A stretch of DNA of 41,781 bases, taken from positions 1 to 41,781 of the forward strand of contig JALOTQ010000003.1 of the NCBI GenBank assembly GCA_025457815.1, in the 5' to 3' direction. This DNA is from Thermoplasmata archaeon. Its GTDB lineage: Archaea; Thermoplasmatota; Thermoplasmata; UBA10834. Of this stretch, positions 1 through 39,752 are shown in pieces; position 1 is the stretch's first letter, and each line of letters begins with the position of its first letter. The position numbers and the translations under genes were made by a program. Below the pieces are notes generated by a model. The model ran no database searches. It was not told where the DNA came from and was given only the letters and a program-made list of their open reading frames with translations.

Positions 1-19
1 TCGAGCGGCCTTGAGTCGT

Positions 20-910
20 ATGATGACCTACGAGCACAGGATCTTCGGGTGCCCTGTCTGTGGCTACAGGATTTCCCAGAAGGATGCAGCCTGTCCCAGG
101 TGCGGAAACGCGTTCTCGGGTACGACGAAGGTCGAGTGCCCGTTCTGCGGAGACTTGGTGGAGCAGGGGGCGGGGGCATGCCCTTCGTGCCACGTGGACT
201 ATGCGGAGTTCAGGGCGAGCACTGAGGCGAGGGGCGGCGACGACAGCATCGACGCGCTCCTCAACGAGATCATCAAGCTCGAAGCCTCGTCCGTCAAGGT
301 CGAGGGAAAGATTGTAAGCTGCCCCAAATGCAACTGGCTCCTGAAGGGCGACGAGACCGAATGCCCGAAGTGCGGCATGGAGTTCAGCGAGGACGTCAGC
401 TTCCAGTGCCCCATCTGCGGCTCGCCGGTCGCATCCGACGCCACGAAGTGCAGCGAGTGCGGCGTGGAGTTCGGAGGCGAGGAGGGCGCCGCCGAGACTG
501 AACCGAGCGAGGGGCAAGAGAAGGTCTCGGGAAAGCTGGACGAGATCGCCAGCGCGCTGGGCCTGGGGCCTGTGGAGGAACCAGCGCCTCGGGTGGCACC
601 TCCGCCGAAGGCTTGGAGCGAGCCCGCCCCGCGTGAACCGGAGCCCGAACCGGAACCTGCGCCTGAACCGGCCCCTGAGCCAGTTCCTGAACCCGCGCCT
701 GAGCCTGTCGCCGAGGAACCACAGCCGCGGGCCGAGCCTGAGCCGGTGGCTGAGGAACCTGCGCCGGAGCCTGCGACTGAGGTTTTCGACGAGAGCTCCT
801 TCCAGGAGCTTGAGAGCGCCCTGAAGGAAGTGGAGCAGGCTACTCCGAAGAAGAAGTCGAAGCAGAGGAAGCTGAAGGCCAAATCCCCGGGCGCAAAGAA
901 GCCGAAGTGA
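20..910 (+). CDS. Multi-zinc-ribbon protein (four CxxC...CxxC ribbons) with Pro/Glu-rich linker and Lys-rich tail
   Basis: CPVC/CPRC, CPFC/CPSC, CPKC/CPKC and CPIC/CSEC pairs; PEPA-type repeats; KKKSKQRKLK tail. ATG at 20 preferred over TTG at 11. Confidence 0.75.
   Translation: MMTYEHRIFGCPVCGYRISQKDAACPRCGNAFSGTTKVECPFCGDLVEQGAGACPSCHVDYAEFRASTEARGGDDSIDALLNEIIKLEASSVKVEGKIVSCPKCNWLLKGDETECPKCGMEFSEDVSFQCPICGSPVASDATKCSECGVEFGGEEGAAETEPSEGQEKVSGKLDEIASALGLGPVEEPAPRVAPPPKAWSEPAPREPEPEPEPAPEPAPEPVPEPAPEPVAEEPQPRAEPEPVAEEPAPEPATEVFDESSFQELESALKEVEQATPKKKSKQRKLKAKSPGAKKPK
634..775 (+). repeat. Degenerate 6/12-nt coding tandem repeat (EP / PEPA)
   Basis: gaaccggagcccgaaccggaacctgcgcctgaaccggcccctgagcca... 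encodes EPEPEPEPAPEPAPEPVPEPAPEP. Confidence 0.7.
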
Positions 911-2489: not shown

Positions 2490-3743
2490 ATGTTGTTCCA
2501 GGCGAGCGGAGCCAAGAAGAGAGTGTACATGGACTACGCGGCGGCGTCCCCCGTCGACGAGAGGGTGGTCGCTGCCATGATGCCGTACTTCTCGGACAAG
2601 TTCGGCAACCCGTCCTCGCTGCACAACGCCGGCAGGGAACCGAAGAAGGCCATCGAGGACGCAAGGGCCAAGGTGGCGGCGCTGTTCAACGCCAAGAGGA
2701 AAGAGGAGATAGTCTTCACCTCCGGTGGGACCGAGGCCAGCAACATCGGGATCAAGGGGGTCGCGATGAGGCTCAGGCCCGAAGGGAACCACATAGTCAC
2801 TTCCGCCATCGAGCACATCTCCGTGCTCAACATCATGAAGTCGCTCGAGAAGGGCGGGTTCGAAGTGTCCTACATCCCCCCGACGAACGACGGGTTCGTC
2901 GACGTCTCCAAGCTGCAGCAGGCCCTGAGGAAGGACACCATCCTGGTGTCCATCATGCATGCCAACAACGAGATCGGCACGCTCCAGCCCATCGACGAGA
3001 TAGGCGCGCTGCTTGAGGAGCGGGACATCACGTTCCACGTGGACGCGGTCGCGTCCGCCGGTAAGGTCCCGACAGACGTCCAGAGGTCCAAGGCGGACCT
3101 CATGTCCGTATCCTCGAACGACATGTACGGCCCCAAAGGGGCCGGGGCGCTCTATGTCCGCGACGGCACCCGCATCGAGGCAATCTACCAGGGAGGTGGC
3201 CAGGAGCGCGGGCTAAGGTCGGGCTCCGAGAATGTCCCTGCCATAGTGGGCTTCGGGGCCGCCGCTGAAATCGCGAGGAACGAGATGGACTCCGAGGGCA
3301 GGAGGCTCGCCGCGCTCAGGGACAGGCTGGTCAAGGGAATCACGGAGAAGATCGAGGACTCGTTCCTCAACGGCCATCCGACGAGGCGCCTCCCGAACAA
3401 CGCGAACTTCAGGTTCAGATACGTCGAGGGGGAGTCGATGCTCCTCAACCTCGACATGATGGGCGTCTCGGTATCCTCGAGCTCGCCTTGCACCTCAAAG
3501 AGCCTTCTGCCGTCGCACGTGCTGCTCGCGTGCGAGATACCAACGGAGGAGGCCCAGAGCGCGGTCCAGTTCACCCTGGGCAGGTCGAACAACGAGGAGG
3601 AGATCGACTACGTCGTCGGGATCCTCCCGGGCATAATCAAGAAGCTGAGGGCGATGTCGCCGTTCAGCCCCGAGAACCTGGCAGAGATGCGCTCGACCGC
3701 GGGGCACAGGGAAGAGGAAGACCACCATCACATAGAGGAGTGA
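2490..3743 (+). CDS. iscS: IscS/NifS-type cysteine desulfurase homologue with SSND instead of SxHK (PLP lysine absent)
   Basis: YMDYAA, FGNPSSLH, FTSGGTEASN, MHANNEIGT, HVDAVA, YGPKG, GLRSGSEN and the SSSPCTS catalytic-Cys loop; codons aac gac (N-D) at 3117-3122. Confidence 0.9.
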   Translation: MLFQASGAKKRVYMDYAAASPVDERVVAAMMPYFSDKFGNPSSLHNAGREPKKAIEDARAKVAALFNAKRKEEIVFTSGGTEASNIGIKGVAMRLRPEGNHIVTSAIEHISVLNIMKSLEKGGFEVSYIPPTNDGFVDVSKLQQALRKDTILVSIMHANNEIGTLQPIDEIGALLEERDITFHVDAVASAGKVPTDVQRSKADLMSVSSNDMYGPKGAGALYVRDGTRIEAIYQGGGQERGLRSGSENVPAIVGFGAAAEIARNEMDSEGRRLAALRDRLVKGITEKIEDSFLNGHPTRRLPNNANFRFRYVEGESMLLNLDMMGVSVSSSSPCTSKSLLPSHVLLACEIPTEEAQSAVQFTLGRSNNEEEIDYVVGILPGIIKKLRAMSPFSPENLAEMRSTAGHREEEDHHHIEE

Positions 3744-21610: not shown

Positions 21611-22885
21611 TCATAGCTGGTTCGGTCGGTTCTGCAGCCCCTCCATCGCGAAGTAGTACTCCATCAGGCACTGGTACCAGCGTGAGTCGTCGACCAGGTC
21701 GAGCCCTATGTCGTGGTACACGAACTGCCTCGACCAATCCCAGGCCATGCCGTTGTAAAGCGCGAGGCAGGGCGGGAACCATATGTTCAGGCCAGTGATG
21801 ACGTCCTTGAACTTCGCGCTGCTCCCCTCGTTCAGGAGGGCGGCGTTGAACGCGTCCGCGAAGGACGCGATGGCGTCGTCGAGGTCCCCGTCGATCCCCC
21901 TCAACCCCTGCAGCAGAGTGTAGGCATCAGGCACGTACTCGTAGCCTCCCATGCTCTGCCTGTTGCATATGAAGGCGTAGTTCAGGGCAGCCTTGACGGC
22001 ATCCGCATTCTCGGCCACCAGAGGCTCCAGCGCCTCGGCCACGTCCATGAACGCGGCGCCCAGCTCGTCCACGAGCGACATGTCGAACGCGGACAACGTC
22101 GCGTAGTTCTGATCTCCCGGGTCGGTGTGCTCGTAGAGCGTCTTGGAGCCGTAGTACGCCATGTACATGTCGACGAGGTCGTACGCGAATTCGCGCGGAG
22201 CGACCTCCGGGTCGGCCACGAGCGCGGTCAGGATCTGCTGATATGGTAGGCCCTCGTCCGGCATGAACAGCTCAGATGCGACGAACCAGTCGACAGCGCC
22301 CCTGAGCTCGTACACGAACTCCACGGTCGCCGCGTCGCACACGTCCATGGCGAGCACGTCCACACGGACGCCGTTCGAGGCAGACGCCTCCCTGATGGTC
22401 CGGGCCATGTCGTCCACGACCATGATGCCGTTGCCGTTCGTCTCGTCCCTGCACACGCCCCGCCACGCGTATCCGTGGTCTTGGAGCACGAGCATGGTCT
22501 TCTCGGCCGGGTAGTTCTGGAAGCCGTAGTCCAGGAACCGCTCGAGCGTGGCCGAGTCCGAGGAGTTGAGCTCCTCCCAGGTCTCCACCGTGTGGCACTC
22601 GCCGTCGTGTATGTCGTAGATCCACGTGCCGCTGACCGACAGGATGTCCATGTAAACGATGAAGTTGATCTCCGAGTTGTCCGTCAGCGCGGACTTCCAT
22701 GTATCGATAGCGAAGTCGAGGTAGGCCTCGAGGTCGTTGTCCGAGTCCCAGTAGATGAGGAGCGTCCACTCCTTTCCGTCATCGGTCTCCTCCGCTTCCG
22801 GAGATGCGGCGGACGCGCTCGGGAGCGCGAAAGCGATCACAATCAACAGACATAACGGAAGTCTAACGTGTTTGAGGCTAGCCAC
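21611..22885 (-). CDS. Secreted clostripain-family (C11) cysteine peptidase, paralogue A
   Basis: Signal peptide; EWTLLIYWDSDNDLE, QDHGYAW (His), MDVC (Cys), VASE, GLPY. Confidence 0.85.
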   Translation of the reverse strand: MASLKHVRLPLCLLIVIAFALPSASAASPEAEETDDGKEWTLLIYWDSDNDLEAYLDFAIDTWKSALTDNSEINFIVYMDILSVSGTWIYDIHDGECHTVETWEELNSSDSATLERFLDYGFQNYPAEKTMLVLQDHGYAWRGVCRDETNGNGIMVVDDMARTIREASASNGVRVDVLAMDVCDAATVEFVYELRGAVDWFVASELFMPDEGLPYQQILTALVADPEVAPREFAYDLVDMYMAYYGSKTLYEHTDPGDQNYATLSAFDMSLVDELGAAFMDVAEALEPLVAENADAVKAALNYAFICNRQSMGGYEYVPDAYTLLQGLRGIDGDLDDAIASFADAFNAALLNEGSSAKFKDVITGLNIWFPPCLALYNGMAWDWSRQFVYHDIGLDLVDDSRWYQCLMEYYFAMEGLQNRPNQL

Positions 22886-23000
22886 CCTGTCCCCCCTGGC
22901 TTATGTGCCTCCCGCATGGCTCCGCCTGACCATAAACACTCACGTCGGATGAGGCAGTCAGTATCCGAAATTCAGCCTTCGGCGACCGCACTCGAATCGG

Positions 23001-23405
23001 CTAGTCTATGGAGCACTCCGCGACCCTCATGCACACGCTCCTCGCCTTCTCGTAGTCGCTCACGACGAAGACGAAGCTCATGGAGTCGTCCTTCTGCCCG
23101 AGCAGGTATGACGCGTTTATCTCGATGCCGCTCTCCACGAGCGACCTCGCCACCCTGAGCCATTGGCCCGGCTTGTTGAACACCCTGACGACCATGACCT
23201 GCCGGTCTCTGTATTGCAGGCCGGCCTTCATCAGCATCCTCCGGACCTCCTCCTCTGATCCCGTCAGGAACTTCACGACGTACCTTCCATCCACCTTGGC
23301 CGTCGCGACGGTGTTCAGGTTGATGTTGTGCTCTGCGAGTATCGATATCGCGTCGAGCAGTTCCTTCGTCGAGCCCTTGAATTCCAGTTCGAACTCGGTC
23401 GCCAT
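23001..23405 (-). CDS. Tandem ACT-domain protein
   Basis: LAEHNINL and NKPGQW..VARSLVESGIEI; ATG 23405 after GGAGGG. Confidence 0.75.
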   Translation of the reverse strand: MATEFELEFKGSTKELLDAISILAEHNINLNTVATAKVDGRYVVKFLTGSEEEVRRMLMKAGLQYRDRQVMVVRVFNKPGQWLRVARSLVESGIEINASYLLGQKDDSMSFVFVVSDYEKARSVCMRVAECSID

Positions 23406-23537
23406 ATGTTCCCTCCTAAGCTCCGGGACGGAATAGGGAGGCGAGTCATATTTATCCTGAACGATGCCCGACTTCGGCAATGGCCGAAAGAAACCAGAAG
23501 GGAAGGTCCGGGGCCGTCCGGCCCCGGTGTTTTGCGC

Positions 23538-24785
23538 TCACTCGAGCGAGTTCGCGTAGTAGGCCATCAGGCAGTCGTACCACATCGACTCGGCCACTAT
23601 GTCTAGCCCGATCTCGTGGTACACGAACTGCTGCCCCCAGACCCAGCTCCGGGACTCGTAGTTCGACAACGAGGGCGGGAAGTTGACCGTCAGCCCGTGG
23701 GCCGTGTCGTGGTACTTCCTGCTGTGGTCCTCCGCGAGCAGCGCGGCGTCGTAGGCCGACATGAAGTCCATGATGGCCGATGCCAGGGCGGGCTGGTCGG
23801 TTATCGACTCCTGCAGGCACTCCATGTACTCTATCATGTCGATCCCCCACTCGATGCTCGCGATGTTCGCCCATGGGCCGATCAGCGCTGAGCCCCTTGC
23901 GCCCTCGATCTGCCTCATGTAGTGCTCGAAGAGCGGTTCCAGGGTCTCGGTGAATGTGGAGAACGACCTGCCGAGCCCGTCAACCTTGCTCATATCGAAC
24001 GCGGAGCAGGTCGCGAAGTCCTGACTGTACTTCATGATGTGCTCGTAGTCCTTCTTCGAGCTGTAGTAGAGCACGTACTCGTGCACGATGTTGATTGCCA
24101 GCTCCTCGGGCGTCAGGTCGGGATCCTCCACGAGGTCCGTTATGAACATCTTGTACGGAAGGCCGTCGTACGGCACCATCGACTCGGACCCGACGACGTA
24201 CGACACGGCGTCCTTGAGCTCGTAGATCGCCTCGATGGTCATCATGTTGCACGCGTCGAACGCGAGCAGGTCGACGCCCGCGCCCCGGGCCTTGACGTTC
24301 TCCAGGGCCGTCGCGAGCATGTCCAGGCTCATGAGCGTGTCACCGTTCGTCTCGTCCTGGCAGAGGCCGCGCCATCCGTATCCGTGGTCCTGCATCACAA
24401 GCATCGTGTTCTCGGCAGGGAACTCGTCGACGCAGTAGTCCAGGAACCGCTCCAGGGTGGCCGGGTCTGAGGAGTTCAGCTCCTCCCATGTCTGGACGAG
24501 GTGTCTCTTCCCGTCGACAATGTCATAGACCCATGCGCCGTCCTCGGATAGGATGTCGATGAACGCGACGATGTTTATCTCGGAGTCGTCCGAGAGCGCC
24601 TTCTCCCAGGTGCTCATCGCGAACTCCGTGCAGAACTCCAGGTTGTTGTCCGCATCCCAGTACATCATCAGGGTCCATTTCTTTCCAGACGATTCTGTGA
24701 CCTGCCCCGCCATCGCGCTCACAGGCAGGGCGACGGCGACTGCGGTCAGCAGGCACAATAGAACATGCGTTCTCCCAAGCTTCGT
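23538..24785 (-). CDS. Secreted clostripain-family (C11) cysteine peptidase, paralogue B (start codon uncertain, ACG at 24785 proposed)
   Basis: KWTLMMYWDADNNLE, QDHGYGW, AFDACNM, VGSE, GLPY; signal peptide KLGRTHVLLCLLTAVAVALPVSAMA. Confidence 0.85.
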   Translation of the reverse strand, partial: TKLGRTHVLLCLLTAVAVALPVSAMAGQVTESSGKKWTLMMYWDADNNLEFCTEFAMSTWEKALSDDSEINIVAFIDILSEDGAWVYDIVDGKRHLVQTWEELNSSDPATLERFLDYCVDEFPAENTMLVMQDHGYGWRGLCQDETNGDTLMSLDMLATALENVKARGAGVDLLAFDACNMMTIEAIYELKDAVSYVVGSESMVPYDGLPYKMFITDLVEDPDLTPEELAINIVHEYVLYYSSKKDYEHIMKYSQDFATCSAFDMSKVDGLGRSFSTFTETLEPLFEHYMRQIEGARGSALIGPWANIASIEWGIDMIEYMECLQESITDQPALASAIMDFMSAYDAALLAEDHSRKYHDTAHGLTVNFPPSLSNYESRSWVWGQQFVYHEIGLDIVAESMWYDCLMAYYANSLE

Positions 24786-24911
24786 ACCAGACTCCCCCCA
24801 AATGCTACTGACTCCCGTATCCGAGGCATGTCTGATAAGGATTTCCCACTCCGACCAGCAGCGCAACTGAATTATCGGGCCGAGGGCATCAGGGCGCGGG
24901 ACGGTAAGTCA

Positions 24912-25676
24912 TTGGGCCTCTCGTTTGACAGGATCGCGGACAGGTACGACACGACGAGGTGGTATCCAGACCAGGTCATGGAGGACATCCTGGCCGTGCT
25001 CGAGAAGAACATCGACCCAGAAAGACCGATACTGGACGCAGGGGTGGGCACCGGGAGGTTCGCGAAACCGCTCCAGGACGCGGGCTTCACGGTGGTCGGC
25101 GTGGACATATCGGCGCGCATGCTGGAGAAGGCGAGGCAGAAGAGCGTGCAAGACCTCCTCCGGGCGGACATAACCGCCCTTCCGTTCAAGGACGAGGTGT
25201 TCGGCTCCGCCATGAGCGTCCATGTCCTGCACCTCATCTCCAACTGGAAGCTGGCCCTGAGGGAGATATCCAGGGTCACGACCGGACATCTGGTGTCCGT
25301 GGCCTTCAACAAGATGGAATCGCCCGCAGAGGAGCTGAGGAGGTTCTACGACCAGACCTGTGCGGACCTCGGGCACGTCGTGCACCATCCGGGCATGCGG
25401 GAGCGCGAGATGCCGGAGGTGTTCGAGCCCGACGAGGAGATCACGATAACCATGCACGAGCACCCCATCGACGTCCGGAACATCATCTCGGACTACTCGA
25501 ACAGGACCTACTCCAACCAGTGGATGATCCCCGAGGAGATCCACCAGCAGGCCATCGAGGCGCTCCAGGAGCGCTACGACGGCGTGGACCAGATCATAGG
25601 CCGTGAGAGGATATCGCTCCTCAAGTGGAGCGCCGACCGGATCTGGGAGTTCGCGGGCGATTTGGCCGCCAAGTGA
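24912..25676 (+). CDS. Class I SAM-dependent methyltransferase
   Basis: SFDRIADRYD, ILDAGVGTGRF, GVDISARML, ADITALPFKDEVF, HVLHLI. Confidence 0.85.
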   Translation: MGLSFDRIADRYDTTRWYPDQVMEDILAVLEKNIDPERPILDAGVGTGRFAKPLQDAGFTVVGVDISARMLEKARQKSVQDLLRADITALPFKDEVFGSAMSVHVLHLISNWKLALREISRVTTGHLVSVAFNKMESPAEELRRFYDQTCADLGHVVHHPGMREREMPEVFEPDEEITITMHEHPIDVRNIISDYSNRTYSNQWMIPEEIHQQAIEALQERYDGVDQIIGRERISLLKWSADRIWEFAGDLAAK

Positions 25677-28022: not shown

Positions 28023-28502
28023 TCACAGCTCGTCGAACTCGTCCTTCGAGCCGACCAACAGGATCGTGGCCAGAAGCCCTAGCGCGATCAGCGTGCCCGT
28101 CCCGTAGGCCGTGGTCAGAATGGCGATGGAGGATGTGAGGACCCCTCCGACCAGCGCCCATGCGAACCTTGTCCTTCGGAGGGCGTAGTATCCTCCGGCC
28201 ACAGCCAATGGCCCGACCATCATCATGGACACCGCTGAGATGATTATGACCGCGTCCTCTTCCTGAAGGGACGGCACTTCGCTCCCGTAGACTACCAGGA
28301 GCTCCAACGCGACTATGAGCTGTGAGAGTCCGGACACCATTATCAGACCGCCGGCCAGAAGCGGCATCGGCGTCCTCCTGACCCTGGGCCGAGACTCGGC
28401 CAAAGGCCTGAAGTCGTGGCCGCACACGGGGCAGAAGCTCGCGTCCTCAGGCATCATGTTGTTGCAGGCGGTGCACTTCCTCGAGGTGGGCGTCATGCTC
28501 AC
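28023..28502 (-). CDS. Zinc-ribbon membrane protein ZR1 (membrane module type A)
   Basis: CTAC..DASFCPVCGHDFR; TPMPLLAGG, GGYYALRR..F, SKDEF. Confidence 0.75.
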   Translation of the reverse strand: MSMTPTSRKCTACNNMMPEDASFCPVCGHDFRPLAESRPRVRRTPMPLLAGGLIMVSGLSQLIVALELLVVYGSEVPSLQEEDAVIIISAVSMMMVGPLAVAGGYYALRRTRFAWALVGGVLTSSIAILTTAYGTGTLIALGLLATILLVGSKDEFDEL

Positions 28503-29029
28503 AACCTCCGGCCGTATCTGGCGTAGTGGTCCTCGACATGAATCATCTCAGGCCCGGATGCCGGTCCCTGCATGAACCCCCGCGACTCGAACTCGTCGGA
28601 TGACACGACGATGAAGAGCAGGCCCGCGAGTCCCACCCCGATCCCCAAGCCCATCGCCCCGCAGAGCCCTCCGACGAAAGCCAGCCCGAAGTGCTGCCTG
28701 GTGATTGCGCTCAGGCCCCCTATCAGGCCGATGACAGCGAGGAAGCTGTGGAAAAGCAGCAACGAGAATGGGAGGTCCACGAAGTTGAGGAGAAAGTAGT
28801 ACCCCCAGTAGTATTCGTCCGTGTTGAGGCCAATCGAGACTCCCCAGAGATTCAGCAGTGCTGAGGCTATGAGAAGGACGCCCCCTATGACGGGCATAGG
28901 TGTGGGCAACTTATTCTGGGCCCGTTCTCTCCGCAGCAACACGCCGCCGCAGTACTGACAATACCGTGCCGCTGGATCGTTCAGTCTCCCGCACTTGCCG
29001 CAATTCACACCTGGAAACGTCCCCGCCAT
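28499..29029 (-). CDS. Zinc-ribbon membrane protein ZR2 (module type A)
   Basis: CGKCGR..ARYCQYCG; TPMPVIGG, GGLSAITRQHFGLA, SSDEF. Confidence 0.75.
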   Translation of the reverse strand: MAGTFPGVNCGKCGRLNDPAARYCQYCGGVLLRRERAQNKLPTPMPVIGGVLLIASALLNLWGVSIGLNTDEYYWGYYFLLNFVDLPFSLLLFHSFLAVIGLIGGLSAITRQHFGLAFVGGLCGAMGLGIGVGLAGLLFIVVSSDEFESRGFMQGPASGPEMIHVEDHYARYGRRL

Positions 29030-29106
29030 CACGAACCACGCTCCCTCTGACACTGAATGCAGAGACGAGATATATCTGGCTTCCTGGGCAATCCAGCATC
29101 CGCAGG

Positions 29107-29141
29107 ATGGAAACATGAAAAACTGGAGATGGAAAGGGTTT
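29107..29141 (-). terminator. AAACCCTTTCC motif plus T-rich tract after ZR3
   Basis: Minus strand reads aaaccctttccatctccagtttttcatgtttcc. Confidence 0.5.
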
Positions 29142-29164
29142 AGGTGTCTCTCAGAACCGAGCGC

Positions 29165-29614
29165 CTACTCGAACTCTTCCCTCGAGATCGCGATGAGTAT
29201 CAGGCCGATGAGGGCTACGATGAAGTATCCGCCCAGGCCCAATATGCCGCCGAGGACAGCCAGGCCGAAGTGCTGCCTCTTGATCGCGAAGAAGCCGCCT
29301 AGCAGCGCCACGAGCCCGACGATCGCCCATATCACGCCGCAGATCACCAGGATGTCGCTGAGGCCGAGGAAGTCGCCGAAATCAATCAACGCGCTCCCAC
29401 CTGCGATCAACGAGACACCCGTTATCAGCTCAAGGATGCCTGCGATGATTATCAGTATGCCGCCCACCATGGGCAGCGCAGTCTTCTTCTTGGCCGGCGC
29501 CGACCCGGGCGCCCCGGCACGATAGTCGTGCCCACAATACTGACACACGTTGGCGTCGAACGCTATTGCGCGCCCGCAAGACACACACTGTCTGGTTCCA
29601 GATCCACTCGTCAT
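29165..29614 (-). CDS. Zinc-ribbon membrane protein ZR3 (module type A)
   Basis: CVSCGRAIAFDANVCQYCGHDYR; TALPMVGG, GGFFAIKRQHFGLA, SREEF; own promoter AAAGGTTTATAT at about 29697-29708. Confidence 0.8.
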   Translation of the reverse strand: MTSGSGTRQCVSCGRAIAFDANVCQYCGHDYRAGAPGSAPAKKKTALPMVGGILIIIAGILELITGVSLIAGGSALIDFGDFLGLSDILVICGVIWAIVGLVALLGGFFAIKRQHFGLAVLGGILGLGGYFIVALIGLILIAISREEFE

Positions 29615-29754
29615 ATTCTCTCTCCGTTGAATCAGGAAAGAGACCCATCCCTACCGGTCTCACTTCCGACTAATCACCAGTTAGCGATATTTGGAAATAT
29701 AAACCTTTGCTGATAATTTCCAGTATTGCTAGACGCAATACTGGCCTCGCGAGT

Positions 29755-30420
29755 CTATGAGGCTGGGAACAGGCTGTCGTGAAGCAGGGCCAGTATCAGG
29801 AGGAGCGATATGCCGATTGCCGTTCCCAGGGCGATCTTCTGAAGGGCTGTAAATGGTCGCTTCTCGAGCAGGATGGACGTCTGCGCCGAGATGGCCAGCG
29901 AGTAGAAGACGAACATGCCTGCGATTCCGGTCAAGGAGACCCCCCAGAACAGGGGTCCATAGTCGCTCGACAGGAGGATCGCGCCCGCGCCCATGACGTA
30001 TAGGCCCGCGAGCCACATGAATCCAGCGGGCCTGTCCAGCACGGGTTTCGTATTCAGCCCAGGATAGAGGACATAGTTCAGAAGAGGGACAAGCAGGAAC
30101 GGGAGCGGCACGCCTAGCGCGAGCCCGCTGAGGGTCCTCCTGAGGTTGTCCGACTCGCTCAGGCCGGAATACGAAAGAATGGAGTCGCCCAGGAAGACTG
30201 ACATGACGGCCCCGAGCACGGCCAGCTGCCAGACGCGAGGAAGGGCGGAGGAGAACCTTCTGGGCCCCGTCGACAGGTAAATCACCGAGAGCACGAACCC
30301 GAGATGGATGCCGATGCAACGAGCGCAGAGCGGCATCTGCACCTCGCCCAGGAAGTAGGACCTCTCGGGGAGCTGATGGCACAGCCCGGACCCAAGGAAC
30401 ATCAGCAGATCCTCGATCAT
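29755..30420 (-). CDS. DUF2085-family membrane protein (long form)
   Basis: CHQLPERSYF..QMPLCARCIGI, SDNLRRTLSG. Confidence 0.8.
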   Translation of the reverse strand: MIEDLLMFLGSGLCHQLPERSYFLGEVQMPLCARCIGIHLGFVLSVIYLSTGPRRFSSALPRVWQLAVLGAVMSVFLGDSILSYSGLSESDNLRRTLSGLALGVPLPFLLVPLLNYVLYPGLNTKPVLDRPAGFMWLAGLYVMGAGAILLSSDYGPLFWGVSLTGIAGMFVFYSLAISAQTSILLEKRPFTALQKIALGTAIGISLLLILALLHDSLFPAS

Positions 30421-30473
30421 TCGGCTCCCGCTCCAGGATGCCGTGGCCGGGCATTAATGATTGCCTGGATTGT

Positions 30474-30528
30474 GGAGAAACGCGAAAAGAAGAATATGGG
30501 AAACGGTTTGCCGCCTCCGCAGAGGCGG
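30474..30528 (-). terminator. Hairpin plus AAACCGTTTCCC plus T-rich tract after ZR4
   Basis: CCGCCTC-N4-GAGGCGG stem (30511-30528), followed on the minus strand by aaaccgtttcccatattcttcttttc. Confidence 0.55.
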
Positions 30529-30559
30529 GCCTTGGTCGGCGGCTGCAACCCTGCCGTTC

Positions 30560-30886
30560 TCAGATCAAGAACGCGAAGTTGCACACGAGCCCGATCAGGA
30601 ACCCGACGATGCCCAGTATCAGGCACATCTTCCCGAATTCCTTGCTCTCGTTGTCCGGCTTCGTGTAGTAGATGATGCCGACGATTATTCCGATGATGGG
30701 TATGAAGAACGACAGGAGATAGAGTATGATCTTCATCCCCTCGCTCATCCCGAGCCCCCCTTGGGCTGGCGCCATCATCTGCATCCTGTAGTCATGCCCG
30801 CAGTACGGGCAGACGTTGGCGTCCCATGAAATCGCGCGGCCGCACCCGGTACAGTTCCTAGTCCCTTGCGAACCTGAGGCTTCCAT
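30560..30886 (-). CDS. Zinc-ribbon membrane protein ZR4 (module type B, 2 TM)
   Basis: CTGCGRAISWDANVCPYCGHDYR; LYLLSFFIPIIGIIVG...GKMCLILG. Confidence 0.8.
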   Translation of the reverse strand: MEASGSQGTRNCTGCGRAISWDANVCPYCGHDYRMQMMAPAQGGLGMSEGMKIILYLLSFFIPIIGIIVGIIYYTKPDNESKEFGKMCLILGIVGFLIGLVCNFAFLI

Positions 30887-31006
30887 GTGTCACCCTCCAA
30901 ATTCCGAAGCAAGGGGGAACTCCCCCGAGCTTCCTGCGCCTGGATTGGCCAGATTCCTATTAAACTGTTGCCAGGGGAACCCAGACTTCGCGTGGAGTCC
31001 TCACCA

Positions 31007-31384
31007 TCATAGGAACGAGAAGACCAGGAGCCCGGCGGCTAGCCAACAGACCAACACGATGATGATCGGGAGGAGTGCGATCAGTATGCACATCTTGCCC
31101 ACGTGTTTGCTGTCCTCGTCCTTGGCCGTCACGATGAGGACCAGGCCGATGATTATCCCCGCCAAGGGGATGAAGAACGACAGGATGTAGAGGACATACC
31201 GAATGCCACCCATGCCCGAACCTTGAGACTGCTGCGAGGGATACGCCCCCATGCGGTAGTCGCGCCCGCAGTACGGGCAGACATTGGCGTCCCATGAGAT
31301 CGAGCGGCCACAGGTCACACAGTTCCGCGTGTTTGACGACACTAGCACCATCGCCCGTGCGGCCTTCGAGGCCGCACTTCCCAT
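31007..31384 (-). CDS. Zinc-ribbon membrane protein ZR5 (module type B)
   Basis: CVTCGRSISWDANVCPYCGRDYR; LYILSFFIPLAGIIIG...GKMCILIA; alternative start at 31351. Confidence 0.8.
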   Translation of the reverse strand: MGSAASKAARAMVLVSSNTRNCVTCGRSISWDANVCPYCGRDYRMGAYPSQQSQGSGMGGIRYVLYILSFFIPLAGIIIGLVLIVTAKDEDSKHVGKMCILIALLPIIIVLVCWLAAGLLVFSFL

Positions 31385-31404
31385 GAATCGTCCCCAGACC
31401 TATT

Positions 31405-31959
31405 TCACTCTTGTCCGGGCTTTCCCTCGCCCGCGCTCCTCTTCTTCCTCGAGTCCTCCTGAAGTACCAGCATGAAGTGCGCGATCAGGAGGGACAGCGC
31501 CAGGCCCGCGATGAGACCCGTGACGACCCTGAGGATGTTGTTGGACTCGTATGAGGTGACCGCCTGGAGGCCACCGTCGATCGCGATCGGGACGAGGCCC
31601 GCGAGCGCTATCAGGGGGTGTATCTTGTACCTGATGAAGCTGGCCACGCCGAAGCCCACAGCGACGCCAACGAAGATGCCCACATCGCGCGCGCAGAACG
31701 GCATCTGATTGCCGTTCAAGAAGAAGCTCCGATTGGCCAGCTGGTGGCATTCAGCGTCCCCCAGCCAGTACACCGCATGAGGGATGGCGGACAGGTCGTC
31801 GAACTGATCCTCGTTCTCATGGCCGCCGACCACCCCCGAGAGGTCCACGAGGGTGTCCGATGGGACCATCAGAGGAGCGGCCACAGTGAGGACTGCCCAG
31901 ACCGTGCAGAAGATGAACACCGCGAACAATGGCAGCGACGTGACGGAGGGCGTCTTCAT
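31405..31959 (-). CDS. DUF2085-family membrane protein
   Basis: CHQLANRSFFLNGNQMPFCARDVGI, PIAIDGGLQ, YESNNILRVVTG. Confidence 0.82.
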   Translation of the reverse strand: MKTPSVTSLPLFAVFIFCTVWAVLTVAAPLMVPSDTLVDLSGVVGGHENEDQFDDLSAIPHAVYWLGDAECHQLANRSFFLNGNQMPFCARDVGIFVGVAVGFGVASFIRYKIHPLIALAGLVPIAIDGGLQAVTSYESNNILRVVTGLIAGLALSLLIAHFMLVLQEDSRKKRSAGEGKPGQE

Positions 31960-31982
31960 CGCACCCGCTAGGCCGCCACACC

Positions 31983-32825
31983 TTAATCTTGTTTTTCTAT
32001 GACGACCGAGGCGTAGCCAACCACATCCCTCATCGGCTGGACGTCGCCGGACGTCGCGTACTTCAGCACGCTCGCCTTTCCGCCCGCGCACGCGGTCATC
32101 GTCGCTATCACTGGACCGTAGCCGCACATCGAGATGTTCTCGTCCTGGACGACCTCATAGAGGCCCTTAGAATCCATGTTCTTGACTGCGTCCAGGGCAA
32201 GAGCGTCTTTCCGCTTGGCGGTCTCCCTGGACACGTAATGGGACATGTCCGTGGAGGCTATGACTATGACGTCCTTCCCCTTGATGGCGTCTCGGATTGT
32301 CGTCCCGACGGAGGTCGCGGAGTCGAAGTCCTGGAAGGCCATGCATATGGGCACGAACTTGACTTCCGGGGACAGATACTGAAGGAACGGCAGCTGGACC
32401 TCGATCGAGTGTTCCGCGTGATGAGCTTCGTTGTCCTCGTCGACAAGATCCTTCCGGAGCGCCTTCGCGAGCTCCTTGTCGATCCTGGCGACGCCCAGCG
32501 GGGTCTGGAAGTCCTCCGAGGCGACCGCGAGTCCCGAGCCTCGGCCCGTGTGGTTCGGGCCCAGTATTACGAACGACTTCGGGAGGCCGTCCTCGGCGAT
32601 CCTCGAGTACAGGTGCGCCGCGACCATGCCCGAGTAGATGTAGCCCGCGTGAGGCGCCACGCCCCCCAGTATCCTGCGGGCCTTGGCACCTGGCTTCGGG
32701 AGCTTCCCCGGGCCGAGAGGCCCCAGGAAGCACGCTTCTATCTGGTTCCGGAGCCCTCTCTGGTCACCCTCGTAGAACATTCCCGCGACCGATGGATGCC
32801 TTATGTTCCCACCAAGCGAATCCAA
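31983..32825 (-). CDS. MEMO1-family protein (AmmeMemoRadiSam protein B); true start possibly ATA at 32804
   Basis: RHPSVAGMFY, APHAGYIYSG, GPNHTG, EHSIEVQLPFLQ, ASTDMSHY, SMCGYGP, YATSGD, VVGYAS. Confidence 0.88.
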   Translation of the reverse strand: MDSLGGNIRHPSVAGMFYEGDQRGLRNQIEACFLGPLGPGKLPKPGAKARRILGGVAPHAGYIYSGMVAAHLYSRIAEDGLPKSFVILGPNHTGRGSGLAVASEDFQTPLGVARIDKELAKALRKDLVDEDNEAHHAEHSIEVQLPFLQYLSPEVKFVPICMAFQDFDSATSVGTTIRDAIKGKDVIVIASTDMSHYVSRETAKRKDALALDAVKNMDSKGLYEVVQDENISMCGYGPVIATMTACAGGKASVLKYATSGDVQPMRDVVGYASVVIEKQD

Positions 32826-32874
32826 AGCGCTTCGCTAGCCCAATACATTTTCGCATGATAATCTGAGAAAGGGC

Positions 32875-33510
32875 TCAGAGGGACGCTTCGAACTCATCGA
32901 CGGTCATCTTGAAGTCGTCGTCGTTCGCGAGCTGCCCCCGGGCCTTCATGACCTCCCTTGTGAGGAGCCAGTAGACCGTCGCGAGCGCGCGCCTGCCCTT
33001 GTTGTTGGATGGGATCACGAGGTCGACGTACTTCGTCTCGTTGTTGGCGTCGCAGATCCCTATGACCGGTATGCCGACGTTGAGTGCCTCGTTTAGCGCC
33101 TGCTCGTCTGCGGCAGGGTCGGTGACGAAGAGCATCTCGGGCTCGATGAAGTTCGGCAGGATCGGGTTGGTGAGCGAGCCCGGGACGAACCTGCCCGCGA
33201 TGACCTTTGCGCCCACTGCCTTGCCGAACACCTTGGCCGGCTTCTGGCCGTACTGCCTCGCGGAGACGATGAGTATCCTCTCGGGAGGGAAACGCGCCAT
33301 GAACCTGGCGGCGACCCTTATCCGCTCATCGGTCTTCTTCACGTCGAGTACGTAGAGCCCGTCCGACCTGACCTTGAAGATGAATTCCTTCATGTCGGCG
33401 CTCTTCTGCTGGGTGCCGATGTGAACGCCGGACGTGAGATAGACGTCCTCGGGAATCAGAAGGCTCGTTCCAGTGTCGGTCTGTGGCTGCGTGTCTGATA
33501 CCTCGTCCAT
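32875..33510 (-). CDS. rps2: 30S ribosomal protein S2 (uS2)
   Basis: [48 protein letters not shown]. Confidence 0.96.
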
Positions 33511-33519
33511 CCCTATTCC

Positions 33520-33690
33520 TCACTCTCTCTTAACGGTCATTGGAATTACGTGCTTGTCGTACTCCATGATAGAAATCTCGATGGGATCGATGGTCTCATC
33601 GGGGACATCCACGAGTATCGGAGCGCCGAGGCTTATCTGGAGCGCCCTCGCCCCTATTATCCTGGCCCTCTCGAACCTCGTGTATTTCAA
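33520..33690 (-). CDS. rpoK: DNA-directed RNA polymerase subunit K (Rpo6); 56 aa, absent from the ORF track
   Basis: Hand translation from TTG 33690: [56 protein letters not shown]. Confidence 0.94.
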
Positions 33691-35702: not shown

Positions 35703-35806
35703 CCCCCCCTGCATCTCTCCCCTGCGCTCGCCTAATATGGAAGTATGTGCCAGTTATCACTCTTCGGAATCTGACGGTCTAGTATTTGAAGGAGCGAGGG
35801 ACTCGA

Positions 35807-37273
35807 ATGAACGATCGAATGCTCACAGTTCTCAGCAAGAATGACATCGAGGCGATCCACGGGGCGACCATGGAGGTCCTCGACAGAACCGGTGTGAAGA
35901 TGGACTCCCCTGAGGCTCTGAAGCTGCTTCAGGAGCATGGTTGCGAAGTGGACGAGAAGACCAAGACCGTACGCATGAACGAGGCGATCGTCATGGACGC
36001 GGTCAAGAGTTGCCACGGGAACTTCAGGTGGCACGGGCGCTCAGAGAAGGATTCGTTCGACGTCGTCAATGGCAAGACGAAGTTCGGTCCCGGGGCCCAA
36101 TGCCTATACTACATCGACCCGGACACGGGTGAGTTCAGGCATTCAACGCTCCAGGACGGGATACGGATCTGCAGGCTGCTCGACGCACTGGACACATGCA
36201 GCCTCGGATATGTTCCTGTCTACCCCACTGACGTGCCTGATGGTGCCATGAGCCCGATCATGTGGGTCGCGGGATTGGTGAACACGTCCAAGCCCACGTA
36301 CGGCGGCTGGGGGGATGATGCCGAGTTCGAATTGATGCTGCGCGTTGCCGAGGCGCTGCTTGGCGACAGGGAGCTCGTGAGGAAGAAGACGCTGTTCCCG
36401 GCGTACATCGATCCGGTGAGCCCGCTCGGGCACGACCAGTACATGACCCAGACGCTTCTTAGGTACGCGCAGTGGGACATCCCGGTGTTCGTGATGGTGA
36501 TGGCCCTCGCGGGCGGGACCGCTCCTGCTTCTCTCGCAGGCCTGCTGGTCCAGCAGAACGCGGAGATTCTCAGCGCCGTGGTCACTGCCAAGTGCGTCAC
36601 TAAGCGCCCGAAGATCATCTACGGCTCCGTCTCGTGCCCGCTCGACATGAGGTCCGGCATCGCGGCGACAGGCTCCCCGGAATTCTCGCTCCTGGGCGTG
36701 GGGGCAGTGCAGATGGCCAAATCGTACGGCCTCCCGAGCGACATGGGCATCCAGAGCGACTCCAAGACCGTCGATGCGCAGACGACCTACGAGAAGACCC
36801 AGGCTGCCCTCATGGCAGTCATGTCCGGAGCTGACTTCGCGGAACTCTTCATGGGCTCCACCGAGGCGTTCAACGCGTTCTCGCCCCTGCAGCTGATGAT
36901 CGACGACGAAATTGCATCGAACGTTCAGCGCATCGCGCGCGGCATCGAGGTGAACGATGAGACGTTATCCGTCGGAGTCATAGGTAAGACCGGCCCGCTG
37001 GGCAACTTCCTGAAGCAGAAGGAGACTCTGACGCAGTTCAAGAAACAGCATATGATTCCGAAGCTCTCCGACAGGGCCACGCGGCAGCAGTGGACGTCGT
37101 CGGGCTCCAAGGATTCTCTCCAGAGGGCCAAAGAGCGCATGAGAGAACTGTTGAGGACCCACGAGCCCGAACCTTTGGACCCGGATGTGGCGAGGTCTCT
37201 CGAGGCCCTCGTGAAGGAATACACCAAGGAATATGACCTCGGGTCGCTGGCCAGAACCGGTCCGGTACGATAG
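35807..37273 (+). CDS. Trimethylamine methyltransferase (MttB/MtgB) superfamily protein, non-pyrrolysine
   Basis: IHGATMEVL..TGV, PVSPL, AGGTAPASLAG.LVQQNAEIL, DMRSG..ATGSPE, SDSKTVDAQ..YEK, QLMIDDEI; no in-frame TAG. Confidence 0.88.
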   Translation: MNDRMLTVLSKNDIEAIHGATMEVLDRTGVKMDSPEALKLLQEHGCEVDEKTKTVRMNEAIVMDAVKSCHGNFRWHGRSEKDSFDVVNGKTKFGPGAQCLYYIDPDTGEFRHSTLQDGIRICRLLDALDTCSLGYVPVYPTDVPDGAMSPIMWVAGLVNTSKPTYGGWGDDAEFELMLRVAEALLGDRELVRKKTLFPAYIDPVSPLGHDQYMTQTLLRYAQWDIPVFVMVMALAGGTAPASLAGLLVQQNAEILSAVVTAKCVTKRPKIIYGSVSCPLDMRSGIAATGSPEFSLLGVGAVQMAKSYGLPSDMGIQSDSKTVDAQTTYEKTQAALMAVMSGADFAELFMGSTEAFNAFSPLQLMIDDEIASNVQRIARGIEVNDETLSVGVIGKTGPLGNFLKQKETLTQFKKQHMIPKLSDRATRQQWTSSGSKDSLQRAKERMRELLRTHEPEPLDPDVARSLEALVKEYTKEYDLGSLARTGPVR

Positions 37274-39038: not shown

Positions 39039-39500
39039 TCATCTGCACGGTGGTTTGTTGGTGACACTCTCGTAGACTTCGCGGACCTCGTTTGCTTCTG
39101 ACTCTCCCAATCGATAGTGGCCGTAGAGCACGGAGGAATAGCTGGCCGCTCTCGGATGTCTGCGAAGGGCAAATAGAATCGCAACGGCCGATGCGACTAA
39201 TGCAATACCTGTGAGCGTCAAGAAGACATCAAGAGCGAACAAGCCGAGAATCGACGCCGATACTCCGACAATCACCAGGGCGGCGAACATGAACACTCCG
39301 ATCTGCCACATCCAGAGCTCGTCCGACCAGTACACGTGCCCGAACTTGTCGATGTCCTTGGACTCGATCAGCGCCTCTGACTCCTGCTCGTCACCGAGCT
39401 TCGGCCGAGAGTCGAATCCGGCGCTGGTGAGATTCCTCCCGCACGCGCTGCAGTATCTTGCCTGCTCGCCGTTGTCCGCACCACATGCAAGACATTTCAT
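39039..39500 (-). CDS. Zinc-ribbon membrane protein (third membrane module)
   Basis: CLACGADN..ARYCSACGR followed by two hydrophobic segments. Confidence 0.65.
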   Translation of the reverse strand: MKCLACGADNGEQARYCSACGRNLTSAGFDSRPKLGDEQESEALIESKDIDKFGHVYWSDELWMWQIGVFMFAALVIVGVSASILGLFALDVFLTLTGIALVASAVAILFALRRHPRAASYSSVLYGHYRLGESEANEVREVYESVTNKPPCR

Positions 39501-39752
39501 CGAACCACCGTATTGATGAGAAGAACGGCGGAGGGGCATTTAACAATTCTTCTGGGGTTCCCTAGGATGGGCACCATCTCTTCTTGGAGAACGGAAGAAG
39601 GAACCGTGACGGCTGAGCACGTTGCACGCGGAAAGCCAAACCGTACAGGCCCTACTCCAATTGGGGGAGGAATGGTTTGGAAGGACGCCGCAGTTCGCCA
39701 TTGCTCATCTCGTGATTCTCAGAGGAGACTCTGGGAGATTTGTTAGCAGGAG

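Follow-up and report, generated by a model that had tools for sequence, protein, structure and literature searches.

A recurrent genomic partnership between DUF2085 proteins and zinc-ribbon membrane proteins, seen from a seven-gene array of a Thermoplasmata archaeon

Two genes of the DUF2085 family, D1 and D2, share a short stretch of a Thermoplasmata archaeon contig (JALOTQ010000003.1, assembly GCA_025457815.1) with five genes, ZR1 to ZR5, for small membrane proteins that carry an N-terminal ribbon of four cysteines (Cys4). Is such a neighbourhood the mark of a joint function, or an accident of inheritance? The window, that is, the whole stretch of 41,781 nucleotides that was analysed, holds the seven open reading frames (ORFs) on its minus strand at 28023-31959, in the order D2-ZR5-ZR4-D1-ZR3-ZR2-ZR1; their common orientation and outer limits are as reported by a first-pass annotation made from the sequence alone. 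The genes are:

31405..31959, minus strand: D2, a DUF2085 protein of 184 amino acids (aa), at the head of the module-B block (Pfam PF09858, 4.7e-27)
31007..31384, minus strand: ZR5, a canonical Cys4 ribbon and the two-helix module B, 125 aa
30560..30886, minus strand: ZR4, a canonical Cys4 ribbon and the two-helix module B, 108 aa
29755..30420, minus strand: D1, a DUF2085 paralogue of 221 aa, at the head of the module-A block (PF09858, 2.1e-19)
29165..29614, minus strand: ZR3, a canonical ribbon and the four-helix module A, 149 aa
28499..29029, minus strand: ZR2, a diverged ribbon and module A, 176 aa, the methionine at 29029 being the likely start
28023..28502, minus strand: ZR1, a diverged ribbon and module A, 159 aa, its start overlapping the stop of ZR2 by 4 bases

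The D2 ORF extends over 31405-32127, and its likely start at 31959 is taken from the alignment, in which its relatives begin there; the ORF of ZR2 could begin as far upstream as 29116 (28499-29116).

The genomic partnership between the two kinds of genes is real and wide: in distant lineages and in unrelated contexts, a DUF2085 gene adjoins genes for small membrane proteins with a Cys4 ribbon predicted to be cytoplasmic. As far as our searches go, it is also undescribed: the literature searched holds nothing on zinc-ribbon membrane proteins of Thermoplasmatota, and only incidental mentions of DUF2085, with no functional study, so that the earlier description of this family as one without known function stands. 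The pairing probably marks an undescribed membrane machine. We propose, with a probability of roughly 0.45, that the array is a conserved membrane module of two parts, present here in expanded form; that DUF2085 and ribbon proteins work together at all seems to us rather likely.

How regular is the association among close relatives? DUF2085 is present in 37 of the 41 genomes sampled from the class, and in the window's family 24 genomes have it, the window's own included. Some 6 kb on each side of every DUF2085 match were inspected, with ORFs marked by profiles built from the window's own proteins, and 150 of the 161 matches to the module-A profile were listed and compared with the DUF2085 positions; counts of module-A copies given below are among these matches. 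Within the family, a module-A gene lies within 3.5 kb of DUF2085 in 22 of the 24 genomes, the two exceptions being a contig that ends at the DUF2085 gene and a genome with only D2-B-D1. Such intervals make up less than 1% of a genome and contain 46 of the 126 module-A matches of the family. The ribbon genes come after DUF2085, on the same strand: after a DUF2085 gene of the D2 type come one or two module-B genes, in some genomes with a module-A gene in between, and after a gene of the D1 type, or a sole DUF2085 gene, one to four module-A genes. In two relatives, DUF2085 and module A seemed to be fused in one ORF; the two lie in different frames, and we read these ORFs as over-extended in G+C-rich DNA.

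A wider scan of genomes at the species level, with a DUF2085 alignment, found 398 relatives, the best 80 of which all come from metagenome-assembled genomes of Thermoplasmatota. At 50 of these 80 loci, an ORF with module A, module B, or a ribbon and a transmembrane (TM) segment lies within 300 bp of DUF2085. The loci fall in three unrelated contexts, named after their flanking genes: RpoK-S2-Memo...RPA, which is that of the window; GluRS-BacA...Wzx-like/glycosyltransferase; and SpoU-ProRS. Module A stands downstream of DUF2085 in the first and upstream in the other two. Adjacency is thus found in three unrelated settings and in both gene orders.

The second context comprises six loci (L124, L125, L130, L137, L145 and L147), labelled Poseidoniia, marine group III and similar. 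GluRS and BacA, of the undecaprenyl-diphosphatase family, lie upstream of the module-A/DUF2085 pair, and downstream come a Wzx-like flippase (four to five of the six) and a glycosyltransferase (three to five of the six). Immediately upstream of DUF2085, a protein of about 400 aa joins a ribbon of a different kind and one TM helix to a CarboxypepD_reg domain in an outer loop and to the last three helices of module A; at five of the six loci, a gene of 53-57 aa with a TM segment and a ribbon is found on the opposite strand, at or just beyond the end of DUF2085. At five loci labelled Thermoplasmatales or Methanobacteriota, the gene with ribbon and module A overlaps the start of DUF2085. Four of these five have SpoU and ProRS upstream, M50 occurs in three and PEPCK, downstream, in one; the fifth, L151, has the same pair with flanks that none of our flank queries matched. 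Four of the five also have, on the opposite strand, a module-A gene without a ribbon. At L139, L153 and L154, two or three membrane proteins come next, and all of them have a ribbon resembling those of the window, the ribbon being C-terminal in five of these eight proteins. Near DUF2085, then, the ribbon is joined to the four-helix module A, the two-helix module B, a three-helix module with the ribbon at its C-terminus, and a single TM helix with an outer domain: 'interchangeable ribbon subunits', the expression of the first-pass annotation, describes this variety fairly.

The pair is also found in Bacteria. A tblastn search of plasmids, with D2 and a Bacillus DUF2085 as queries, returned nine records from five species of Bacillota. 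In all six plasmid regions inspected, a gene for a small cysteine-rich protein lies directly upstream of DUF2085 on the same strand, all but one of the six encoded proteins being membrane proteins. The spacing ranges from an overlap of 8 bases to a gap of 25 bases in five regions; the gene table of the sixth, L158 (NZ_CP035955.1, Bacillus mycoides p210), as distributed, has no DUF2085 gene, and tblastn recovers the frame at 3001-3225, with 92% identity to the copy on the small plasmids. The upstream protein of B. mycoides has 93 aa, a ribbon and two helices, and its stop abuts the DUF2085 start; that of Monoglobus has several ribbons and is the one that overlaps DUF2085 by 8 bases; those of P. 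polymyxa, B. thuringiensis and Jeotgalibacillus have two helices followed by a tail rich in Cys and Asp. TerD, a TelA-like gene or a MerR regulator is found near the pair in four of the six regions.

Metagenomes supply a rate. A scan with an alignment of five DUF2085 sequences found 223 relatives, of which 80 loci were kept: an adjacent gene with ribbon and TM segment (at most 450 aa) is present in 37 of the 80, versus 9 of the 253 ORFs that are not adjacent. Eleven further loci have neighbours with module A or B and no ribbon, which brings the count to 48 of 80. At loci of low G+C content, where DUF2085 is minimal (111-132 aa), the upstream protein has a ribbon and a two-helix module with the motif GWxLLGCCIPxVGLILYLVWKDxKP. 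Is this module related to the archaeal module B? With the ribbons removed, hhalign gives a probability of 80.7% (E 1.3e-5, 48 columns), compared with 2.4% for the control against module A; with the ribbon included, the probability between the bacterial-type proteins and the module-B proteins is 94%. The co-localisation in other genomes that had been put forward as a check is thus found in Thermoplasmatota, in metagenomes and on Bacillota plasmids.

We now turn to the proteins themselves. All five ZR proteins have two knuckles, CxxC-x10-CxxC. The ribbons of ZR3 (CVSCGRAIAFDANVCQYCGHDYR), ZR4 (CTGCGRAISWDANVCPYCGHDYR) and ZR5 (CVTCGRSISWDANVCPYCGRDYR) are 74-83% identical to one another over 23 residues, and those of ZR1 and ZR2 are 26-52% identical to the others, much as the first reading of the sequence had it: three near-invariant ribbons and two diverged ones. 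Its consensus strings for types A and B agree with the alignments, and the two modules are indeed unrelated (profile-profile hhalign probability 0.7%). Against four zinc-ribbon families of Pfam (PF13240, PF13248, PF10571 and PF12773), ZR1 reaches the cut-off (25.0 bits for 25, PF13240) and ZR4 passes it (30.4 bits for 29, PF10571, UPF0547); ZR3 (26.6 for 27), ZR5 (24 for 27) and ZR2 (21.7 for 28) fall narrowly below. The membrane parts reach the threshold of no Pfam family, and a scan of the genes against NCBIfam gave sub-threshold matches only, such as the TsaT toxin at 19 bits for a cut-off of 80. It had been suggested that module B might belong to DUF4190, CD225/dispanin or TM2: none of the three matches ZR4 or ZR5 in Pfam at E <= 0.1. 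Two leads, and only leads, come from Atlas, in which the structure nearest to module B is a DUF4190/zinc-ribbon cluster, with TM-scores of 0.48-0.50, and the closest entries to ZR5 are ribbon proteins from Bacillota, about 100 aa long, with a score of 0.91.

Within the window's family, nearly all A and B proteins next to DUF2085 carry the ribbon CV(S/T)CGRxIxWDANVC(P/Q)YCGHD(Y/F)R. The mean pairwise identity of this ribbon is 0.74 among module-A proteins (n=70), 0.88 among module-B proteins (n=19) and 0.80 between the two sets; that of the membrane modules is 0.38 for A (n=70) and 0.54 for B (n=19). The ribbon is thus under far stronger constraint than the modules that it is attached to. A tree of ribbons that are nearly identical is uninformative, and these identities, together with a tree of module A, were used in place of a comparison of ribbon and module trees. 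In the maximum-likelihood tree of 48 module-A sequences, whose bootstrap had not fully settled, ZR3 has a short branch (0.35) within a group of 18 orthologous rows (support 99/98); the end branches of ZR1 (2.93) and ZR2 (1.78) are long, and neither protein is securely placed. The canonical ribbon is thus ancestral and strongly constrained in both module types, and ZR1 and ZR2 have drifted jointly in ribbon and module. The first-pass annotation had noticed that the ribbon of ZR3 is closer to those of the type B proteins than to those of its type A neighbours, and had offered two explanations, domain shuffling or selection by a shared partner. Selection by a shared partner fits the pattern. Shuffling at ZR3 is not required, because ZR1 and ZR2 are the diverged copies and the canonical ribbon is the rule in neighbours of both types.

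Module A is a large class: of 1.84 billion cluster representatives, its profile matches 2669 at E <= 0.001, a number that falls to 827 at E <= 1e-10. Among fifty of the best 150 matches, looked at more closely, ribbons are seen at either end, and CarboxypepD_reg domains in the first outer loop. The AlphaFold2 (AF2) model of ZR3 (pLDDT 89.9) shows a small ribbon attached to a bundle of four helices, the last two of them short. Foldseek found no match for it; in the wide VIA structure search, the best hits are soluble four-helix bundles (Z 9.1, a generic value, as are all those below 13 for helical bundles), and the best membrane entries are tetraspanins and a claudin, at Z 6.7-7.7. At the sequence level too, DUF4064, tetraspanin and claudin keep turning up as sub-threshold matches of module A: of 35 module-A sequences, 14 match DUF4064 at E <= 1, the best at 0.0029 and all below its cut-off of 32.1 bits, and one of 50 wider relatives passes it, with 41.2 bits over positions 2-42 only.

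Copies of both modules exist elsewhere in the host genome, whose assembly is 88% complete. Module A is found in two tandem genes with several ribbons on contig C77 and, weakly, in one gene of C44. Module B is found on C81 (3590-4393, plus strand), in a protein with a first ribbon, a canonical ribbon, the module, and a C-terminal outer domain of about 130 aa to which no family is assigned; the same canonical ribbon and the same outer domain are found in a protein of C91 (14279-15025, minus strand), again after a first ribbon, with a single TM helix in place of the module. Because of these genes, ribbon, module and outer domain must be seen as occurring in several combinations, some of them away from DUF2085. 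The window itself has two further ribbon proteins: one at 11-910 (plus strand), with three ribbons and a long Pro/Glu-rich tail, and one at 39039-39539 (minus strand), with one ribbon and two TM helices that are neither module A nor module B.

A search of the whole host genome finds only two DUF2085 genes, both in the array. D1 and D2 score 70.1 and 94.7 bits with PF09858 (gathering score 25 bits) and share 35% identity over 112 residues. D2 has one more TM helix at its N-terminus, and its motif reads C-H...C-A-R-D; D1 lacks this helix, has the motif C-H...C-A-R-C and additional C-terminal helices, and retains the full cluster C-H...R-S...C-x-R-C...D...N-x-x-R. The Asp at the last Cys position is common to D2 and to most Thermoplasmatota forms with the extra TM helix. 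Twelve residues are invariant across Bacillota and archaeal proteins (C, H, R, C, R, C, D, Q, R, T, G, G), and the picture is that of a compact helical membrane protein with the cluster C-H...R-S...Q...C-x-R-(C/D)...D...S-x-N-x-x-R at one membrane face. In the AF2 model of D2 (pLDDT 94.9), an N-terminal helix is followed by a short helix, a beta hairpin and three more helices, and the C-H and C-x-R-D motifs flank the hairpin. This fold has no Foldseek match in the PDB at E <= 0.001, and the wide VIA search yields pieces of MFS transporters in the noise range (best Z 5.7, root-mean-square deviation 3.9, 111 residues aligned); profile searches of PDB sequences, with the DUF2085 and ZR alignments, give nothing below E 0.4.

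On which side of the membrane do these motifs lie? By the positive-inside rule, loops rich in Lys and Arg face the inside, and counts of Lys+Arg per loop were used as a stand-in for it, on the DUF2085 proteins of loci L035-L242 and L157-L161. In the 118 proteins that have the extra helix at the N-terminus, the C-H motif is on the poor, or outer, side in 94, on the rich side in 14, with 10 ties. For D2 the counts are 2 versus 7, and for D1, 3 versus 8, so that the C-H cluster of both is predicted outside; in Bacillota, the motif is on the rich, or inner, side in all four proteins, with ratios of 5:1 to 12:0. The ZR ribbons are preceded by Lys and Arg, and are predicted inside. If the heuristic is right, ribbon and cluster would be on opposite sides here, and on the same side in Bacillus: either the DUF2085 family has two orientations, or the Lys+Arg heuristic fails here.

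A hint of what such proteins might do comes from longer relatives of D2. Six clusters of about 325 aa (P0240-P0245) have an N-terminal glutaredoxin-like CxxC domain (PF05768), a TM helix, and then a DUF2085 of the D2 type with core motif C...H...C-(E/Q)-R-D; such fusions are present on many contigs. They hint at thiol or metal chemistry: the fused cytoplasmic thiol domain occupies the place that the Cys4 ribbon, encoded by a neighbour, has in the window, and this is the basis for considering a metal or thiol relay, at low odds. The Cys/Asp-rich tails of Bacillota point in the same direction; the TerD, TelA-like and MerR genes near the plasmid pairs do so more weakly.

The adjacency might instead be historical: a large and fast-duplicating class of genes would have left one array beside DUF2085, inherited by the whole family, with no joint function. 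Several observations weigh against a two-part module and speak for such a history. All close relatives share one syntenic block, which therefore counts as one event. Most module-A copies of the family (80 of 126) lie away from DUF2085, and in the other families of the class sample module A is nearby in just one of 13 genomes, with one of 24 matches. The host genome abounds in ribbons: the CxxC...CxxCG pattern is found 99 times, within about 65 ORFs, and further genes with ribbon and module A or B lie on three other contigs. Neither is DUF2085 always accompanied: 30 of the 80 Thermoplasmatota loci, mostly labelled Methanomassiliicoccales, and 32 of the 80 metagenome loci, some of them cut by contig ends, have no such neighbour. 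The partnership is facultative, not obligatory. However, a single inheritance would have to be reconciled with the recurrence of the pair in three unrelated contexts with differing gene order, its recurrence on Bacillota plasmids, and a metagenome rate about ten times the background; we therefore hold the historical explanation to be unlikely. A last point on the same side as the foregoing objections concerns geometry: with the cluster outside and the ribbons inside, by the Lys+Arg count, direct contact of the two in this archaeon is doubtful.

That geometry would suit a scaffold, in which the four- and two-helix ribbon proteins are tetraspanin-type adaptors bound to DUF2085 through their TM helices, like AuxB, and the ribbon recruits a cytoplasmic protein, with no cysteine chemistry between the partners: the conserved parts of module A, namely the R-K-x-F loop, the S-x-x-E-F end and the ribbon, are cytoplasmic, and the cluster of D1 and D2 is predicted outside. 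The weak matches of module A to DUF4064, tetraspanin and claudin are in keeping with this, as is the four-helix bundle of the model, whose best membrane matches are tetraspanins (Z 7.4-7.7), and AuxB, a DUF4064 protein, binds its partners through TM and tail (PMC12505970). Yet these Z values are in the generic range, the DUF4064 cut-off is passed by one relative of 50 and over part of the profile, and the Bacillota tails and glutaredoxin fusions are left unaccounted for, so that the scaffold too strikes us as rather improbable. Still less probable is an enzyme surrounded by its substrates, with DUF2085 maturing, modifying or degrading its ribbon neighbours: the invariant polar cluster (C, H, R, S, Q, D, N, R) does resemble an active site, and several similar small genes do stand beside one enzyme-like gene, but no similarity to a protease or a transferase was found by sequence or fold, and the ribbon proteins form conserved families of their own, whose ends are intact. 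A defence or stress island, anti-viral or devoted to metalloid stress, is the most improbable of all, even with the TerD, TelA-like and MerR genes of the plasmids: the array follows S2 and Memo in a stable housekeeping block, and the anti-viral function suggested earlier fares badly, none of the seven proteins matching a PADLOC defence model at E <= 0.01.

Returning to the two-part module, its most concrete form would be a hetero-oligomeric membrane complex, a tentative proposal to which we give somewhat less than even odds. DUF2085 would be the constant core, the four-helix (A) and two-helix (B) ribbon proteins would be exchangeable subunits, and both sides would have been duplicated in this lineage. 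Whether the complex performs cysteine-based chemistry across the membrane, either binding and handing over a metal or relaying thiols and disulfides, is a more fragile conjecture, and one that we consider unlikely; in it, the ribbon would play the part of the glutaredoxin-like domain that is fused to some DUF2085 proteins. Pushed to its end, and at odds that stay long, the conjecture describes a widely distributed and previously unrecognised device in two parts, DUF2085 and a tethered Cys4 ribbon or fused glutaredoxin-like domain, which would pass reducing power, or a metal ion, across the membrane between cytoplasm and outer face, and which would have diversified here into several subunit combinations. 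If true, this trans-membrane redox or metal device would be one of a new kind. The partnership is of interest in any case: DUF2085 is a widespread family, in the class and in Bacillota, with no known function, few unannotated genes of archaea and Firmicutes are as common as those for small ribbon-anchored membrane proteins, and the pairing gives both families a first functional handle.

The surroundings of the array are those of ordinary genes. Upstream of D2, Pfam identifies:

31983..33690, minus strand: RNA polymerase subunit K, ribosomal protein S2 and a Memo-like protein

Of these, the Memo gene stops 23 bases ahead of the D2 start, and the order RpoK-S2-Memo is kept in all close relatives; close loci also have in common an aminotransferase on this side and RPA on the other, from which, in the window, two RPA-like genes (Pfam) converge on the array. 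The G+C content at third positions is 0.77-0.85 in all seven genes, equal to that of the recognisable genes of the window, and a search for TATA-like boxes upstream of the seven found two weak sites only, at -77 and -89. Farther away, the window holds two paralogous peptidase genes of the clostripain family (C11) at 21611-24866 (minus strand), with small genes without family between them (23001-23480) and upstream of them (24872-25312). At 35786-37273 (plus strand) lies a methyltransferase gene of the MttB family, an uninterrupted frame of 495 codons and apparently of the kind without an in-frame amber codon, followed by a gene with EF-Tu domain 2.

What known systems does the array resemble? 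Module B, with its ribbon-less relatives of 77 aa, has weak matches to the VirB2/TrbC-type conjugative pilins (PF18895; NCBIfam Mbov_0395 pilin-like), all sub-threshold (best 24.5 bits for a cut-off of 26.6): in each, two helices form a hairpin with a short charged loop. Conjugation genes are absent from the surroundings, and the likeness is probably one of shape only. The likeness to relays such as DsbD/CcdA and VKOR-thioredoxin, in which a polytopic membrane protein with conserved cysteines works with a thioredoxin-fold CxxC domain or is fused to one, is one of logic only, with the glutaredoxin-like/DUF2085 fusions as a parallel: no DsbD/CcdA, DsbB or VKOR chain is among the listed fold or sequence matches of DUF2085, and D2 has Asp in place of the last Cys.

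AuxB of Staphylococcus aureus is a four-helix scaffold with a cytoplasmic extension that binds PknB and GpsB, and the studied member of DUF4064, a family of the tetraspanin clan of Pfam (PMC12505970). Module A, weakly DUF4064-like, is likewise a four-helix membrane protein with a cytoplasmic extension; it is at most a putative member of DUF4064, its matches being sub-threshold in 49 of the 50 relatives scanned. AuxB has no ribbon, and it is not reported to have a DUF2085 neighbour.

Close counterparts are the plasmid pairs of B. mycoides (NZ_CP036115.1 and relatives), which RefSeq calls 'zinc ribbon domain-containing protein' and 'DUF2085 domain-containing protein', and of which neither gene has been functionally studied. 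As in the window, a protein with a ribbon and two TM helices is encoded directly beside DUF2085, here upstream, with a profile match of 94% to module B, and the invariant DUF2085 residues are common to both. The differences are that the B. mycoides DUF2085 is minimal, with 116 aa, three helices and no N-terminal TM helix, that it has one ribbon partner and not five, and that the predicted orientation of its conserved cluster is opposite to that of the window proteins. With only two genes, on small plasmids, this pair is a tractable system in which the partnership can be tested.

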